A DNA stretch of 58,429 bases from Bacteroidota bacterium (GCA_947453935.1 CANGJU010000003.1:1-58429); one strand, 5' to 3'. Counted from the first letter of the stretch, positions 31,950-39,794 are shown. The notes: generated by a model not told the origin, from the sequence alone. Made by a program: numbers and translations.

Positions 31950-32147
31950 ATGAAAATGTTGCTGATTAAATCTATTTCAGAGGATAATTTAAGACTTCTA
32001 TCTAAATATTTGAAACGAGCTGAAGTTGAATTTAAAGTTGTATCAGAAAATCAAATTGAAGATTTAGGCTTGTCATATTTGATGAATGAGGCTGATAAGT
32101 CTATACTAGTATCTAAAGAAATGATATTGAAAAAACTAAGAAAATAG
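31950..32147 (+). CDS. Small antitoxin-like protein (Bacteroidota RelE/ParE partner type), no toxin downstream
   Basis: 65 aa; EDLGL...MNEAD....VS...ILKKL pattern, recognised from recall only. Confidence 0.5.
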   Translation: MKMLLIKSISEDNLRLLSKYLKRAEVEFKVVSENQIEDLGLSYLMNEADKSILVSKEMILKKLRK

Positions 32148-32153
32148 TTTGAT

Positions 32154-32447
32154 TTAGTAAATAATAATCAATTCGTTTTGTATTCGAGAAAAATACTGCG
32201 GTTTGATCCCTTTTTTAGAAACCAAATCTACTTTGATATTTAAAAATTTTTCAAGTTCATTTGCTAAATCTATAAACTCAATACCTATTGATTTTTCAAA
32301 CTCAACCATTATGTCAAGATCACTATTTTTTGTTTCCTCAGATCTGCTATATGAGCCAAAAATAGCCAACTGTTTTATGTTGTACTTGCGAGACAAGTAA
32401 TCTTTATTTGATGATAAAATGCTCTTTATTTCGACTAAGCTTTTCAT
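32154..32447 (-). CDS. Minimal nucleotidyltransferase (MNT/MntA-like), no HEPN partner
   Basis: IFGSYSR......SDLDIMVEF, KVDLVS. Confidence 0.88.
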   Translation of the reverse strand: MKSLVEIKSILSSNKDYLSRKYNIKQLAIFGSYSRSEETKNSDLDIMVEFEKSIGIEFIDLANELEKFLNIKVDLVSKKGIKPQYFSRIQNELIIIY

Positions 32448-34636: not shown

Positions 34637-34987
34637 ATGAGAAAGCTAATTCTACTATTTGTTTTGTTATTAATTTTTAACAACACCCAAGCTCAAACCC
34701 AAGCTGAAATGAATCAGGCTGCTGCGAAAGGATATTATAAAGCCGATGCAGAGCTGAATAAGGTTTATAAAATTCTAATGTCGAAGCTAGATGAGAATGG
34801 AAAAAGCCTTTTAATCAAAGCAGAAAACGACTGGATTAAATATCGTGAATCACATTGTAAATTTGAAGCATCTTTTTACGAGGGTGGCAGTATGCAACCA
34901 ATGATTTATTCGAGTTGTTTAGAAAGTGTCACTATGGAGCGAATAAAAGAACTGAAAGAGGCGATTAAAGAGTTTGGTGAATATTGA
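34637..34987 (+). CDS. LprI (DUF1311) lysozyme-inhibitor family protein
   Basis: Signal peptide; AQTQAEMN, ADAELNKVY, WIKYRESHC, GGSMQPM...C....T.ERIKEL. Confidence 0.85.
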   Translation: MRKLILLFVLLLIFNNTQAQTQAEMNQAAAKGYYKADAELNKVYKILMSKLDENGKSLLIKAENDWIKYRESHCKFEASFYEGGSMQPMIYSSCLESVTMERIKELKEAIKEFGEY

Positions 34988-34990
34988 TTT

Positions 34991-35356
34991 ATGCTTAGAA
35001 CTATCTTCCGTATCGTAGCTGGCTCCTTATGGTATATAGGTCGTTTAACACATTTGACCTATAACGAGATTAACGTTGTAGTTTATTATTTTGTCATTCC
35101 GTACTCCTGGTTGTTAATGTTGGATGCTATTTTCGGATTTCACTACTGCGCTATTATTGGGGGTTTGTTTTATTTCTTGTTCTGGCTAGCGATTAAAAAT
35201 TTTAGAAGTTTTTGTGATGATGTATTTGATTTGTCGGAGCGCTTTTTAAACTCTTTTAATATCTACGGCAGTAATTATGTGGCAAGTTCAGTATGGATAT
35301 GCGTGGCTTTGCCTATATTGATTTATGGAGTGTTGATTTACTATCTGATTAAATAG
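34991..35356 (+). CDS. Hypothetical membrane protein
   Basis: Three hydrophobic segments; FCDDVF..S..FL....G.NYV..SV.ICV. Confidence 0.7.
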   Translation: MLRTIFRIVAGSLWYIGRLTHLTYNEINVVVYYFVIPYSWLLMLDAIFGFHYCAIIGGLFYFLFWLAIKNFRSFCDDVFDLSERFLNSFNIYGSNYVASSVWICVALPILIYGVLIYYLIK

Positions 35357-35492
35357 AAAACGTAATTTCTGCAAGCTTGCAGCTTTTTTGTGTAAGTGTT
35401 TACCCTGATTATTTTCGTCGTGTGAAAAATATTTTTAACGATATACAATGTCTTAATATTTTTTGCGTTCAGAAATTTCAAACCTAAAAAAC

Positions 35493-35837
35493 ATGATAAA
35501 AAAATTACTGTTATCGGCTACGGCGGTAGGACTTTTAATGACTATTTCCTGTAATCAATCTAATCCTGAAGTTTCAAAGAATATTAAGTGGCGGGCAAGA
35601 ACCATTAAAAAAAACAAATTGGTTTATGCATTTAATATTGATTCCTTACCGGTAAAAGCAGGCGATACAGTCTTGTTGAATTACAACAGTGAGTCGTTGG
35701 GTTATTATATAGCTAATGTAGCGTATCCTGTACGTGATACTGCTTATTTAGATACCTACGTCGATTCAAATGGGGTAGAGCAAAGCTATCATTATGAAGC
35801 AATCAATGTTGTTTTGTTGGATAATAGTGTCAGGTAG
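35493..35837 (+). CDS. Hypothetical lipoprotein (ATG at 35493 preferred)
   Basis: MIKKLLLSATAVGLLMTISC lipobox-like signal. Confidence 0.65.
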   Translation: MIKKLLLSATAVGLLMTISCNQSNPEVSKNIKWRARTIKKNKLVYAFNIDSLPVKAGDTVLLNYNSESLGYYIANVAYPVRDTAYLDTYVDSNGVEQSYHYEAINVVLLDNSVR

Positions 35838-35923
35838 TAGGTTGTAAATTAGTATTGAATTTCAATACATTTTAATTTATTAACAGCTCAGAAAAAATTC
35901 AAACCAAATAATAATTTCACTTC

Positions 35924-36964
35924 ATGAAATATAGTTTACGAGAAAAATTAGAAAATATTATTCAAAATGAAGCTTTCAGTGATTCAGAAATCTCGCTTCG
36001 ATTAATTAATTTAATTAACCAATTAGATTTACATCAACCCGTTAAGAAGGAAGCGAAATCCATTAGTAATTTATATGAATCTACTTTATCAGAGGTTAAC
36101 ACTGACAAGCTGAATCATAATTATATTAAAAGTGGATTTACCACATTTGATAAGTCGATTCGAGGTTTTATACCTGGTGAATTTGTAGTGATTGGCGGAC
36201 GACCTGGAATGGGTAAGACACAGTTTGCAATTAATCTTGCAATAAATATTTCAAAAACGCATAAATCGCAATTTTACACCTATGATGATACTGAAGAAAG
36301 TATCATGAGGCGTATACTTTCTAATCTATGTCATATTCCAACATTCAAATTTGATTATAATGAGTTGTCGGATATTAACAAGGATATGATTAACAAGATT
36401 GGACCAATCGTTAATGAATTAAAATTACATGTTTCAGAATGTAATTACTTGAATTTTTTGGATTTCAAAGCTGACTTAATCAGGGATATAAAAGAGAAGG
36501 AACTAAAAGTAGTTTTCATCGATTTCTTGCAAGCCATTATTCCTTCGAAAACAAGATATAACCGCGAATTTGAAATTGGCTACGTATGTCGCGAGTTAAA
36601 AATGATTGCTAAAGAATTTAATGTTTGCATTATTACTACTTGCCAGTTAAGCAGAGCTGTTGAAACAAGAGGTTCTTCTAAACGTCCACAACTTTCAGAT
36701 TTAAGAGATAGTGGTTCCATAGAACAAGAAGCAGACAAAGTATTGATGTTGTATCGTCCGGAATATTATCAGCTGGAAACTTTAGAAGATGGAACAACTA
36801 CCAAAGGATTGATGGAAGTGATGGTAGTTAAAAATAGATGTGGAAAAATAGATTATATCCCTTTACGCTGTCTAATGGCAATTTGTCTGATACAAGATTA
36901 TAACTATTTCGAAGATGATTTTGATTTTGTGGAAAATCGTTTATTTGATCTTCCTGATTTTTAA
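35924..36964 (+). CDS. DnaB-like SF4 helicase C-terminal domain protein lacking the N-terminal domain; candidate retron partner
   Basis: H1 GGRPGMGKT, H2 FIDFLQ, H3 RELKMIAKE..CQLSRAVETR, H4 RPQLSDLRDSGSIEQEAD, KNRCG. Walker A lies at about residue 92. Confidence 0.9.
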   Translation: MKYSLREKLENIIQNEAFSDSEISLRLINLINQLDLHQPVKKEAKSISNLYESTLSEVNTDKLNHNYIKSGFTTFDKSIRGFIPGEFVVIGGRPGMGKTQFAINLAINISKTHKSQFYTYDDTEESIMRRILSNLCHIPTFKFDYNELSDINKDMINKIGPIVNELKLHVSECNYLNFLDFKADLIRDIKEKELKVVFIDFLQAIIPSKTRYNREFEIGYVCRELKMIAKEFNVCIITTCQLSRAVETRGSSKRPQLSDLRDSGSIEQEADKVLMLYRPEYYQLETLEDGTTTKGLMEVMVVKNRCGKIDYIPLRCLMAICLIQDYNYFEDDFDFVENRLFDLPDF

Positions 36965-36984
36965 TATATAAAAAATAAAAACCT

Positions 36985-37149
36985 AGAGCCGTTGCAATCA
37001 ACATTATGATGTCAACATATAGAGACATGGTGGTTGTGTTCCTGCAACCCGTGATCAGTTGGGTAAGGCTAATCGACTATTTATTTGTCGCTCGCTACGC
37101 TCACTCCTCATAAATAGTATCTGCAATCAAGATAATGGACAACGGCTCT
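36985..37149 (+). ncRNA. Putative retron msr-msd ncRNA
   Basis: Terminal inverted repeat agagccgttg (36985-36994) / caacggctct (37140-37149); stem-loop ggttg...caacc (37032-37049); hairpin actatttat/ataaatagt (37076-37118); ends 10 nt before the RT ATG. Confidence 0.8.
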
Positions 37150-37159
37150 TTTTAAATTT

Positions 37160-38317
37160 ATGAAACACAAAGAAAGAATAGATTTAATACTTCGTGAATA
37201 TCGCGATGAAGTCTGGCGTTTTAGTGACCTGGAGGAATGTTATAACTTTCTTAAGCAAAATCATATTGGAGCAAAAAGACATGAGATTAAATCGGCAATG
37301 CTTTTATCGATGAAGAAACATGTGGATATTGCTCGATTGATTTCTCACGACATTTTTGATTTAAAAGAGTTAGTTAATAATCCCGTTTACTCATCCTATA
37401 AGATTGGGAAAAAATCGGGTGGATTTCGTTTAATTGATAGTCCCGATGAAAAACTAAAAAAGGCGCATCGAAATTTAAATTCATTTTTGCAATCCTATTA
37501 TTTATGTATCAAGCCTGAGTCTGTCCATGGATTCGTGCCTGATTTTTACAGGATTCAAAGACGAATTAATATTGTTGAAAATGCAAAGCCACACGTAGGT
37601 AAAAAATATGTTTTAAATATCGACTTAAAAAATTTCTTTGATACCATATCAGCACAAAGGGTTTATCAGTTATTTATTGGAAAGCATTTTGACTATAACA
37701 AGTCGGTAGCAGCCGCATTAGTATTATTGGTTTCTTACAAGGGGAAACTGCCAACGGGCGCACCAACATCTCCTGTTATCTCCAATTTTATTTGTCTCGA
37801 ATTAGATCAATGTCTGATGGAGTTTTGTAAAACCTATAACTTGACTTATACTCGTTATGCGGATGACTTAACATTTTCGTCAGATCATGAAATTTCTGAT
37901 TTGTTATTGTTGATGATTAAAGAGATTATTCAGTTGAATGGATTTAAAGTGAACAATAAGAAAGTGAGAATAAAATCTAGTGCTCGTCAGCAGATGGTAA
38001 CAGGTTTAGTGGTAAATCAAAAAATAAATGTCGATAGAAAATTGATTAAGCAGGTGCGTGCAATGATTCATCATACCAAAGTAAATGGATTAACAGAAGC
38101 AACAAAAAAGCATTTTAGATTATCTGACGAAAAGGACGTGGGACCTTACAGAAAATTATTTCTTGATAAACTTGTAGGATTAATCAATTTTATTGGATTA
38201 ATCAGAGGAAAACTTGATGCTGTATTTTTAAAATTGGAAGATGATTTTTGTAGTCTTGAATTCAACAAGCCTACTATCAAGAATCCAGTGAATAACTATT
38301 ACAGTGTAGATTTTTAA
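37160..38317 (+). CDS. Retron-type reverse transcriptase
   Basis: KKSGGFRLIDSP, HGF, region X NAKPH (NAxxH), IDLKNFFDTI, LPTGAPTSPVISN, YTRYADDLTFS, region Y VTGLVVN. Confidence 0.93.
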   Translation: MKHKERIDLILREYRDEVWRFSDLEECYNFLKQNHIGAKRHEIKSAMLLSMKKHVDIARLISHDIFDLKELVNNPVYSSYKIGKKSGGFRLIDSPDEKLKKAHRNLNSFLQSYYLCIKPESVHGFVPDFYRIQRRINIVENAKPHVGKKYVLNIDLKNFFDTISAQRVYQLFIGKHFDYNKSVAAALVLLVSYKGKLPTGAPTSPVISNFICLELDQCLMEFCKTYNLTYTRYADDLTFSSDHEISDLLLLMIKEIIQLNGFKVNNKKVRIKSSARQQMVTGLVVNQKINVDRKLIKQVRAMIHHTKVNGLTEATKKHFRLSDEKDVGPYRKLFLDKLVGLINFIGLIRGKLDAVFLKLEDDFCSLEFNKPTIKNPVNNYYSVDF

Positions 38318-38329
38318 TTAATTTATTAA

Positions 38330-39016
38330 ATGAAAAAAGTAATTTTATTTTTAGTAGTAATTGCCTTAGCAGGAGGCGCAGTTTTTTATTTTAAATTTTA
38401 TAGGATTGATAAGAAGCCCAAAGTTGCACATAATGGATGTTGGGGTATAGACATATCACATTACCAAAAAAACATTAATTACGATAAACTAATTAAGGAG
38501 AATAAACCTGCTTATGTTTATTTAAAAACTTCACAAGGGAATTCTATGGTTGATGATCTATATGCGGATCGTTTGAAAAAATTCCGCGAATTAGGTATTC
38601 CAGTTGGGGGTTATCATTTTTTCAATTACAATGTGAGTGGTAAAGAGCAGGCGGAACATTATATAAAAACGGCTAATTTGCAAAAAGGCGATTTATATCC
38701 TGTGTTAGATGTGGAGATGAAACACAGTAGTTCCCAAAGTAAACAATGGATTGTAAGAGAAATAAAATCATTTTGTGTAGAAGTAAAAGCAGAGTATGGT
38801 GTGGAGCCACTTATATATTGTGAATACGATTACTACCATAAATATTTGAAGGATGATTTTGGTGATTACCAGTATTGGATTAGCGACTTTGTAAGAGCTC
38901 CTCGTTGTAAATATGTGATGTGGCAATACGATATTTTACATGTTAATGGAGTTGGGAGCATTGATAATAATCGTTTAGCTGAAGGTGTGAGGTTGGAGCA
39001 GCTTATTTTGAAATAA
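38330..39016 (+). CDS. GH25 muramidase (lysozyme) with N-terminal membrane anchor
   Basis: GIDISHYQ, GGYHFF, PVLDVE (DxE), PLIY, YWISD, MWQY. Confidence 0.9.
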   Translation: MKKVILFLVVIALAGGAVFYFKFYRIDKKPKVAHNGCWGIDISHYQKNINYDKLIKENKPAYVYLKTSQGNSMVDDLYADRLKKFRELGIPVGGYHFFNYNVSGKEQAEHYIKTANLQKGDLYPVLDVEMKHSSSQSKQWIVREIKSFCVEVKAEYGVEPLIYCEYDYYHKYLKDDFGDYQYWISDFVRAPRCKYVMWQYDILHVNGVGSIDNNRLAEGVRLEQLILK

Positions 39017-39067
39017 TTCAATTATACTTTTCCCCATTAGTTTCCGTTATTCCATAAACCAACCATT

Positions 39068-39652
39068 ATGAAACAATTATTTTTTATCGCAATTATGCTA
39101 TTGTTCGCTAGCAACTGTTTTGTGCAACAATGGACCATCCAGGAGTTTGAATCTGCTAATACTGCTAAAAATATAAAGGCGATTACTCAAGAAGAAAAAG
39201 AGGTTATCCGGTATATAAATCTTGCTCGAATATATCCTAAAAAATTTGCCTCAATAGAATTAAAAAAAGCTATTGATGATGGATTGTATAAAGAAACTGA
39301 CTTTACAAAGTCACTTCGTGTAACATTAAATCAAATGAAGCCAGTTGGACTATTATCCTTTGATCAAACTATGTTTCAACTCGCGAATTGTTTTGCTTTG
39401 GAGTGTGGTAAATCAGGAGCTGTAGGGCACGATAGGGTTCGCTGTGTCGATGGTTTTGATGCTGAATGTTGTTCTTATGATTGTCAAACAGGTTTAACAG
39501 TTACTCTTCAGTTACTAATTGATCAAGATGTGCAAAGTCTAGGACATCGCAAAATTTGTTTAGATGATGAGTTTGCTAAAGTTGGAGTAAGCATAAAACC
39601 ACATAGCTATTATAATTATTGCTGTATTTTAGATTTTAAACGCAACGACTAG
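39068..39652 (+). CDS. CAP/SCP domain secreted protein
   Basis: INLARIYP, LLIDQDVQSLGHRKICL, VGVSIKPH. Confidence 0.8.
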   Translation: MKQLFFIAIMLLFASNCFVQQWTIQEFESANTAKNIKAITQEEKEVIRYINLARIYPKKFASIELKKAIDDGLYKETDFTKSLRVTLNQMKPVGLLSFDQTMFQLANCFALECGKSGAVGHDRVRCVDGFDAECCSYDCQTGLTVTLQLLIDQDVQSLGHRKICLDDEFAKVGVSIKPHSYYNYCCILDFKRND

Positions 39653-39741
39653 AGTAAAATTCTTAGTTATCGAATTGAATTATTAAAATTCAATATTCGA
39701 ATTTTAAACTGATTGATAAATATTTACAAAATAGTAGTTAT

Positions 39742-39774
39742 AAAAAAAGAGCACCGTTTGGTCCTCTTTTTTTT
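39742..39774. terminator. Bidirectional terminator between the CAP gene and pntB
   Basis: aaaaaaagag / ctcttttttt stem with A- and T-runs. Confidence 0.65.
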
Positions 39775-39794
39775 GAATAGCTTTTATAAATCCC

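Follow-up and report, generated by a model that had tools for sequence, protein, structure and literature searches.

A DnaB-like protein constantly accompanies a possibly type XI-like retron in Bacteroidota and is a candidate mimic of the replicative helicase

What is a shortened relative of the replicative helicase DnaB doing directly upstream of a reverse transcriptase (RT) gene? The question is raised by a DnaB-like gene in a 58,429-nucleotide stretch of a Bacteroidota bacterium genome (GCA_947453935.1 CANGJU010000003.1:1-58429), the whole of which is referred to here as the window. An earlier reading of the sequence, hereafter the original prediction, had described the encoded protein as a truncated DnaB with an altered catalytic motif and an acidic, Phe-terminated tail, and had proposed that it is not the replicative helicase but a repurposed NTPase ring that binds single-stranded DNA (ssDNA). 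Our analyses show that the encoded protein invariably accompanies a retron, one that is possibly type XI-like. As to its function, comparison across the family suggests, with a probability that we put at roughly 0.45, a retron effector that works as a mimic of DnaB.

The retron itself is recognizable from its RT and from the RNA in front of it. According to the criteria ascribed to Mestre et al. 2020, a retron is reportedly identified by an RT of the retron clade carrying the NAxxH and VTG motifs, by a structured noncoding RNA (ncRNA) with a1/a2 inverted repeats directly upstream, and by the production of multicopy single-stranded DNA (msDNA). The RT and the ncRNA are present at the window locus: the RT carries NAKPH at residue 141, YADD at residue 233, and VTG at residue 280, and the ncRNA upstream of it (Table 1) has an a1/a2 closing helix that shows compensatory changes at its ends. 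This RNA matches no family in Rfam. The best matches of the RT in PADLOC and NCBIfam are all retron RT models, the top PADLOC models having close scores (RT-Toprim_I-C, 315.6 bits; RT-Protease_XI, 312.2 bits; RT-TIR_XII, 284.8 bits). The RT of one variant locus (G408, L075) has FADD for YADD at the catalytic motif and is otherwise intact and under purifying selection.

The association with the DnaB-like gene is found in every lineage with enough flanking sequence (16 of 16), where a gene for a DnaB-like protein 34-85% identical to the window copy is followed, after 183-244 nt, by an RT of 365-385 residues. Apart from the two genes and the ncRNA between them, the loci of these 16 lineages have no conserved element in common, and several of the loci lie among defense genes (Abi_2, PLD-helicase, Schlafen, PemK, and GmrSD). 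Scans for promoters, for terminators, and for a Bacteroidota -33/-7 pattern gave nothing above chance. A computer-predicted RT+DnaB_C lineage, TXI_noncan_h, with DnaB_C in 20 of 29 loci, has been reported (mSystems 2026, September), in which the DnaB_C gene is mostly at +1, downstream of the RT, and the significance of DnaB_C "remains unclear" (PMC13712802). The system type is already published as a 2026 prediction, and the window locus is a new member of this candidate kind.

Such constancy bears on the notion that the gene is the replicative helicase of a phage, a plasmid, or another mobile element that came to lie beside an RT by chance. Its matches in PHROGs (phrog_19 and phrog_243, "DnaB-like replicative helicase") and its position in a variable island would fit this origin, which is nevertheless very improbable because its surroundings contain no further conserved genes for replication, integration, or structural proteins, because the ncRNA and the RT are its only constant neighbors, and because the N-terminal collar and the loader-docking Trp of DnaB are missing from the protein.

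Nor does the gene appear to serve the replication of its own host. The original prediction had called for a search for a separate full-length dnaB in the genome and for a comparison with the Pfam domains PF03796 and PF00772. A full-length dnaB is indeed present on another contig of the same genome (C133) and encodes a protein of 512 aa with both domains and with FSLEM at the catalytic motif. The DnaB-like protein, on the other hand, matches DnaB_C (PF03796) over residues 68-316 (E = 2.7e-63; 214.2 bits versus a gathering cut-off of 27) and gives no match in the Pfam search to the N-terminal primase-binding domain PF00772; against TIGR00665, the NCBIfam equivalog model of DnaB, it scores 221.2 bits, under the curated cut-off of 385. 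The separate full-length dnaB, the lack of the N-terminal domain, and the score under the equivalog cut-off all speak, in agreement with the original prediction, against a replicative helicase; the gene is very probably a retron partner instead. The RT-linked short paralogue is also rare and patchy, occurring in 2 of the 401 species of a phylum sample, in about 7 of 146 in the host order, and in 4 of 12 in the genus, and a search of the genome contigs with the family profile is dominated by true DnaBs, with 3 paralogues among 80 loci. One genome of the same order (G432) has a second, degenerate DnaB-like copy with in-frame stops (C237:8925-9908; L079/L118) in addition to an intact, retron-linked copy on C187.

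The protein comprises a remnant helical hairpin, a linker helix, the RecA-type C-terminal domain of DnaB, and a tail predicted to be disordered. Its AlphaFold2 model (predicted local distance difference test, pLDDT, 87.6) has helices at residues 3-14 and 20-33, the linker at 47-59, and the RecA-type core, with low pLDDT and a short helix (337-342) in the tail; the top Foldseek matches of this model are DnaB chains, at E about 1e-25, and a PADLOC scan of the protein yields weak P-loop matches only (mad8, 6e-7). The anatomy set out in the original prediction holds. Walker A, which it had placed near residue 92 as against about 230 in DnaB, occupies residues 92-99 here and 227-234 in the host DnaB (GMGKT from residue 230), and the collar is absent, residue 1 of the DnaB-like protein pairing in the alignment with residue 127 of the host protein, a loss of about 126 residues. 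The motifs said to be retained were all located, namely Walker B (VVFIDFLQ, residues 196-203), H3 (QLSR, residues 241-244), H4 (LRDSGSIEQEAD, residues 260-271), and the KNRxG arginine finger.

The altered H1a motif, correctly read as Y-T-Y-D-D-T, is a trait of the whole family. Across a set of at least 120 homologue clusters, all intact and encoding proteins of 321-375 aa, 113 of 120 share the Asp that the window copy has, as Asp121, at the position of the catalytic Glu; another 6 have Glu there, and 1 has Gly. Glu124 and Glu125 follow the H1a Asp in the window protein, and 76 of the 120 clusters have Glu at +3 from the Asp, outside the aligned catalytic position. The other ATPase residues hardly vary (Lys98 in 119 clusters, Asp200 in 120, Gln241 in 118, Lys303 in 120, and Arg305 in 112). 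Comparison of close relatives gives the gene a ratio of nonsynonymous to synonymous substitution rates (dN/dS) of 0.10-0.12, the same as for the RT, with still lower values (0.05-0.08) in the ATPase core. A decaying dnaB duplicate, to which the truncation and the altered catalytic motif might have pointed, is thus already refuted and keeps a negligible probability: the clusters are intact, their catalytic residues are near-invariant, and purifying selection at a dN/dS of about 0.1 takes the place of the pseudogene-like decay that would be expected.

Judging from these alignments, a carboxylate at the catalytic position is under selection, usually the shorter one, and the ATPase site looks retuned, not dead. 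The reduced hydrolysis that the original prediction had allowed for is plausible by analogy, with the qualification that the site is not inactivated, its carboxylate being kept as Asp or, in a few clusters, Glu. The RecA variant E96D reportedly retains binding of ATP and DNA and hydrolyzes ATP about 100-fold more slowly, and because RecA E96D behaves in this way we infer that the DnaB-like protein, too, would bind ATP and DNA normally but hydrolyze ATP far more slowly, so that it would act as a switch rather than as a motor.

Since H3, H4, and the arginine finger are kept, ssDNA binding and NTP use are likely, and in all loci the gene directly precedes the ncRNA. Both observations would also suit a helper of the ribonucleoprotein, that is, an ATPase ring that loads on, remodels, or stabilizes the msDNA or its RNA-DNA hybrid and that is needed to produce or to structure the msDNA without being an effector. 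Such a role seems improbable to us: in other retrons the RT alone suffices for msDNA, a retron of only two genes would be left without an output module, and the role would not explain why the tail and the rear third of the protein stay matched to the DnaB of its host, a matching to which we now turn.

The window protein is divided in its resemblance to the DnaB of its own host, with 72% identity over residues 223-305 and 26% over residues 68-222. The same division is seen across the family. Segment 236-320 of the paralogues nests in Bacteroidota DnaB in a tree with outgroups (support 0.93) and has an identity of 0.59 to Bacteroidota DnaB versus 0.47-0.52 to the DnaBs of other phyla, whereas segment 66-235 is equidistant from all DnaBs (0.30-0.32). 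In trees built with FastTree, DnaBs and paralogues form two clans (support 0.995-1.0). A placement of the paralogue clade as sister to Oscillospirales DnaB, which had hinted at retron-linked helicases in Bacillota, was rejected, the two Oscillospirales sequences being housekeeping rplI-dnaB-tilS-ftsH genes; this placement is probably a product of long-branch attraction, resting on the fast-evolving segment.

In 11 independent lineages from which both the paralogue and the DnaB could be recovered, residues 223-320 have an identity of 0.616 to the DnaB of the own host and of 0.588 to the DnaB of other hosts (permutation p = 5e-5). The excess persists when this genome is left out (p = 2e-4), and four lineages that were added after the hypothesis had been framed gave the best of all 24 permutations. 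In a sliding window, it is confined to about residues 236-308, which comprise the H3-H4 loop, H4, and the hairpin preceding the arginine finger; residues 1-235 show no own-host excess in the 11 lineages. Co-divergence of the whole protein with, or independent births from, the DnaB of each host were rejected in view of the two clans and of the lack of any own-host excess in the front part. A DnaB loop specific to the genus, QLETLEDGTSTKNL, is common to the paralogues of that genus, and its synonymous and even its non-interconvertible Ser codons differ between paralogue and DnaB. Recent gene conversion with the host dnaB was likewise rejected. At identical residues, codon identity is 0.442 in own-host and 0.402 in other pairs, and the corresponding values of a control region are 0.422 and 0.369; recent conversion is unlikely because own-host pairs show no synonymous excess beyond the codon-usage effect of the control region, and synonymous sites are saturated in the similar region.

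The C-terminus of the protein is exactly as the original prediction gave it, YFEDDFDFVENRLFDLPDF (residues 328-346). The tail has a dN/dS of about 0.5, yet its terminal motif is retained. Of the 120 clusters, 93 end in Phe and 76 in [P/D/E]F, with a family consensus of ...SRL(D/N)E(I/L)xxxPF, the window copy itself ending in DF (...LPDF) and not in PF. We surveyed DnaB tails at loci L001 254-1792 (the host dnaB), L010-L074, and L122-L198. Phe, preceded by acidic residues, is the last residue of all 36 full-length Bacteroidota DnaBs of a first sample, 27 of which have the PF ending, and the DnaB tails of the host order also bear S(R/K)MN(D/E)M, in parallel to SRL(D/N)E(I/L)...PF of the retron-linked family. 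In a wider sample, the PF ending, of the form ...(D/E)x(P)F, was found in Bacteroidota and in the Chlorobiota, Ignavibacteriales, and Balneolia of the Fibrobacterota-Chlorobiota-Bacteroidota (FCB) group, and the DnaBs of Clostridia, Gammaproteobacteria, and Gemmatimonadota in this sample are without a PF tail. The host single-stranded DNA-binding protein (SSB) ends in ...GSHEPF. By sequence homology, the tail is an inherited SSB-like feature of the DnaB of the phylum and not a new gain. No paper on an acidic Phe tail of Bacteroidota DnaB was found in the literature searched.

Acidic tails ending in Phe serve for docking in SSB (E. coli, ...DDDIPF) and in the T7 proteins gp4 and gp2.5. The original prediction had suggested that the tail may dock the RT or host or phage replication proteins. 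Because the tail is a general feature of Bacteroidota DnaB, it would more likely dock on a partner of DnaB in the host replisome, or on a phage protein directed against DnaB, than on the RT. The RT of the window has a C-terminus of its own (...NNYYSVDF) that resembles the Phe-ended tails of DnaB and of the DnaB-like protein, and it was considered as a matching docking peptide and rejected, being restricted to the closest relatives (the window, L035, and L077). At one locus (L043 6042-6095, P0055), the called protein ends in ...RLSELTTK, and the usual tail (...LGLEESPF and stop) lies just downstream in another frame, which is a frameshift or an assembly error.

What, then, would such a protein do for the retron? 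In most lineages no protein other than the RT and the DnaB-like one is conserved, and the latter therefore probably carries the retron output. A DnaB mimic would be the most economical mechanism, since the features needed to bind ssDNA and NTP, a face acting in trans, and the docking tail of DnaB have all been kept and are matched to the host; a dominant-negative mode of action is a tentative proposal, somewhat short of even odds. Retron effectors are generally held inactive by RT-msDNA. In the mechanism that we envisage, the DnaB-like protein would be a slow, ATP-switched oligomer that binds ssDNA and is held inactive by the RT-msDNA complex. Phage infection would disturb the msDNA and set the protein free, whereupon its host-matched rear face and docking tail would compete or co-assemble with the real DnaB, and host and phage replication forks would stall, with abortive infection as the result. 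In a sub-lineage in which a GH25 muramidase gene follows the RT, this membrane-anchored, presumably co-transcribed enzyme may add a lytic step. It is a more doubtful extension that selection keeps the rear face (the H3-H4 loop and the pre-Arg-finger hairpin) and the tail matched to the host in order to poison or impersonate DnaB during infection, a relationship that would have exposed the apparently undescribed SSB-like ...PF tail on Bacteroidota/FCB DnaB.

A look-alike of DnaB could, on the other hand, be a decoy or sensor, a bait for phage proteins that hijack or block the DnaB of the host; once such a protein had bound it, or bound its tail, the retron would be triggered, and killing would be left to RT-msDNA or to the GH25 enzyme. 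Guard-type retrons are established, Ec48 being the guard of RecBCD. A decoy has to go on resembling its host target, and the matching to the own host at residues 236-308, together with the DnaB-type tail that has been kept, shows just such a resemblance; moreover, the GH25 sub-lineage has an extra potential executioner directly after the RT. We nevertheless hold this explanation to be rather unlikely, since most lineages are without another conserved candidate effector beside the RT and since the site on which known loaders dock has lost its signature Trp. All known helicase loaders, phage ones included, bind the docking helix (DH), which bears this Trp, docking on the module that it forms with the linker helix (LH-DH; PMC9912922); in the alignment, 35 of 36 Bacteroidota DnaBs carry the Trp and none of the 44 paralogues does.

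Several observations also weigh against a DnaB mimic. A decoy, a sensor, or a shared partner would account for the co-variation with the host no less well than a poison subunit would, and ancient short conversion tracts followed by synonymous saturation may also be its source; the effect is, moreover, small (0.616 versus 0.588 over 98 positions), in a region first picked post hoc. The divergence of the loader-docking helix and of the entire P-loop side argues against seamless mixed rings with DnaB, and the retention of Glu in six family clusters means that slowed hydrolysis is not obligatory. Finally, the DnaB-like gene is always upstream of the RT in our loci and mostly downstream in the published lineage (PMC13712802), a mismatch that may mean that the published set includes another sub-lineage or uses a different orientation convention.

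If the protein does act as a DnaB mimic, a helicase-derived ATPase would represent a different retron route to growth arrest, one that acts on the replisome itself. The retuned carboxylate, the lost collar and loader-docking residue, the host-type tail, and the host-matched loops are all testable features, and the phylum-wide SSB-like tail of DnaB directs attention to a so far unstudied contact of the Bacteroidota replisome. To our knowledge, the known effectors of retrons are nucleases, NADases, proteases, membrane proteins, or nucleotide-modifying enzymes.

The GH25 gene begins 12 nt past the RT stop in the window. It directly follows the RT in all four sub-lineage loci with flanking sequence (the window, G408, L108, and L109), with a gap of 8-16 nt where the annotation gives coordinates (L108 and L109), and its dN/dS is 0.126. 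Copies with DnaB-like proteins of only about 53% identity are among the loci that bear it, and neither the genomes of the genus that lack the retron nor the other retron lineages have it. GH25 may be a lineage-specific third component of the retron. Because a close relative (G405) has an empty site, at which the LprI gene runs straight to pntB, the region of about 34993-39794, between the LprI gene (34637-34992) and pntB (39795 onward), can be delimited as a variable island; it contains two small membrane or lipoprotein genes, the retron, the GH25 gene, and a gene for a CAP-domain protein. G408 has the same retron type at the island site plus about 13 kb of other DNA. Elsewhere in the window, at 31950-32447, a gene for a 97-aa nucleotidyltransferase (NTP_transf_2, MNT-like, minus strand) adjoins a 65-aa open reading frame (ORF); this arrangement is conserved in L035 and may be a small toxin-antitoxin-like pair.

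Table 1. Coordinates of the retron, its DnaB-like partner, and associated features, counted from the first nucleotide of the window
Feature	Position	Strand	Basis or remark
DnaB-like retron partner gene, 346 aa	35924..36964	+	ORF, Pfam DnaB_C, AlphaFold2 model, Foldseek, dN/dS
Walker A GRPGMGKT, residues 92-99	36197..36220	+	Lys98 in 119/120 family clusters
H1a YTYDDT, residues 118-123	36275..36292	+	Asp121 aligned to catalytic Glu of host FSLEMS
Region equivalent to DnaB docking (DH) helix	36371..36400	+	Host DEWGRL pairs with INKDMI
H3-H4 loop (ETRGSSKRPQ, residues 247-256) through H4 to pre-Arg-finger hairpin (QLETLEDGTTTKGLM, residues 283-297)	36662..36814	+	Matching to the DnaB of the own host at both ends
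KNRCG arginine-finger motif, residues 303-307	36830..36844	+	Lys303 in 120/120, Arg305 in 112/120 clusters
Acidic C-terminal tail YFEDDFDFVENRLFDLPDF, residues 328-346 (ends ...ENRLFDLPDF)	36905..36961	+	Homologous to host DnaB tail ...VESRINDDRGSADF
Retron ncRNA (msr-msd)	36985..37149	+	a1/a2 repeats, hairpins, conserved in 11 aligned loci
a1 repeat AGAGCCGTTG	36985-36994	+	Part of ncRNA
Two msr hairpins	37009-37028, 37032-37049	+	Part of ncRNA
Long msd hairpin	about 37051-37118	+	Part of ncRNA
a2 repeat CAACGGCTCT	37140-37149	+	Part of ncRNA
Retron-type RT, 385 aa, no fused effector domain	37160..38317	+	Pfam RVT_1; starts 195 nt downstream of DnaB-like gene
GH25 muramidase, 228 aa, N-terminal membrane anchor	38330..39016	+	Pfam Glyco_hydro_25, 2.9e-33; PHROGs endolysin families

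As far as the literature searched shows, the protein anatomy, the origin of the tail, the matching to the host DnaB, and the GH25-bearing variant are new. The closest known system is TXI_noncan_h, with which the loci described here share a stand-alone retron RT, possibly near type XI (the PADLOC scores for types I-C, XI, and XII being close here), a separate adjacent protein with DnaB_C as its only domain, a compact a1/a2-flanked ncRNA just upstream of the RT, and Bacteroidota hosts. They differ in number, 20 loci in the paper versus at least 120 protein clusters here, and the paper is silent on the shortening of the protein, its ATPase motifs with Asp for the catalytic Glu, the lost Trp of the docking helix, the C-terminal tail, the matching to the host, and GH25 (PMC13712802). 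With DnaB as defined by TIGR00665, the protein has in common the RecA-type C-terminal domain, Walker A and B, H3, H4, the arginine finger, the linker helix, the acidic ...F tail of the Bacteroidota type, and about 59% identity over residues 236-320; it is set apart by the missing collar and docking-helix Trp, by Asp in place of the catalytic Glu, and by an identity of only about 31% over residues 66-235.

In tripartite toxin-antitoxin retrons, such as Retron-Sen2 and Eco1, RT-msDNA restrains the effector. The DnaB-like system resembles them in its operon-like cassette of ncRNA, RT, and one constant accessory protein and in the defense-island context of several loci, but its accessory protein is a helicase-derived ATPase with no recognizable nuclease, NADase, protease, or membrane domain. 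The docking tails of SSB and of the T7 proteins share with the DnaB-like protein a C-terminus, predicted here to be disordered, that is acidic and ends in (P/D)F, although the tail described here was inherited from the DnaB of the phylum and not from SSB, and ends in DF in the window copy. In RecA variants of the E96D type, too, the water-activating carboxylate behind beta-strand 2 has changed conservatively from Glu to Asp and the nucleotide-binding residues are intact, but in the DnaB-like family Asp is the natural, selected state of the family as a whole.

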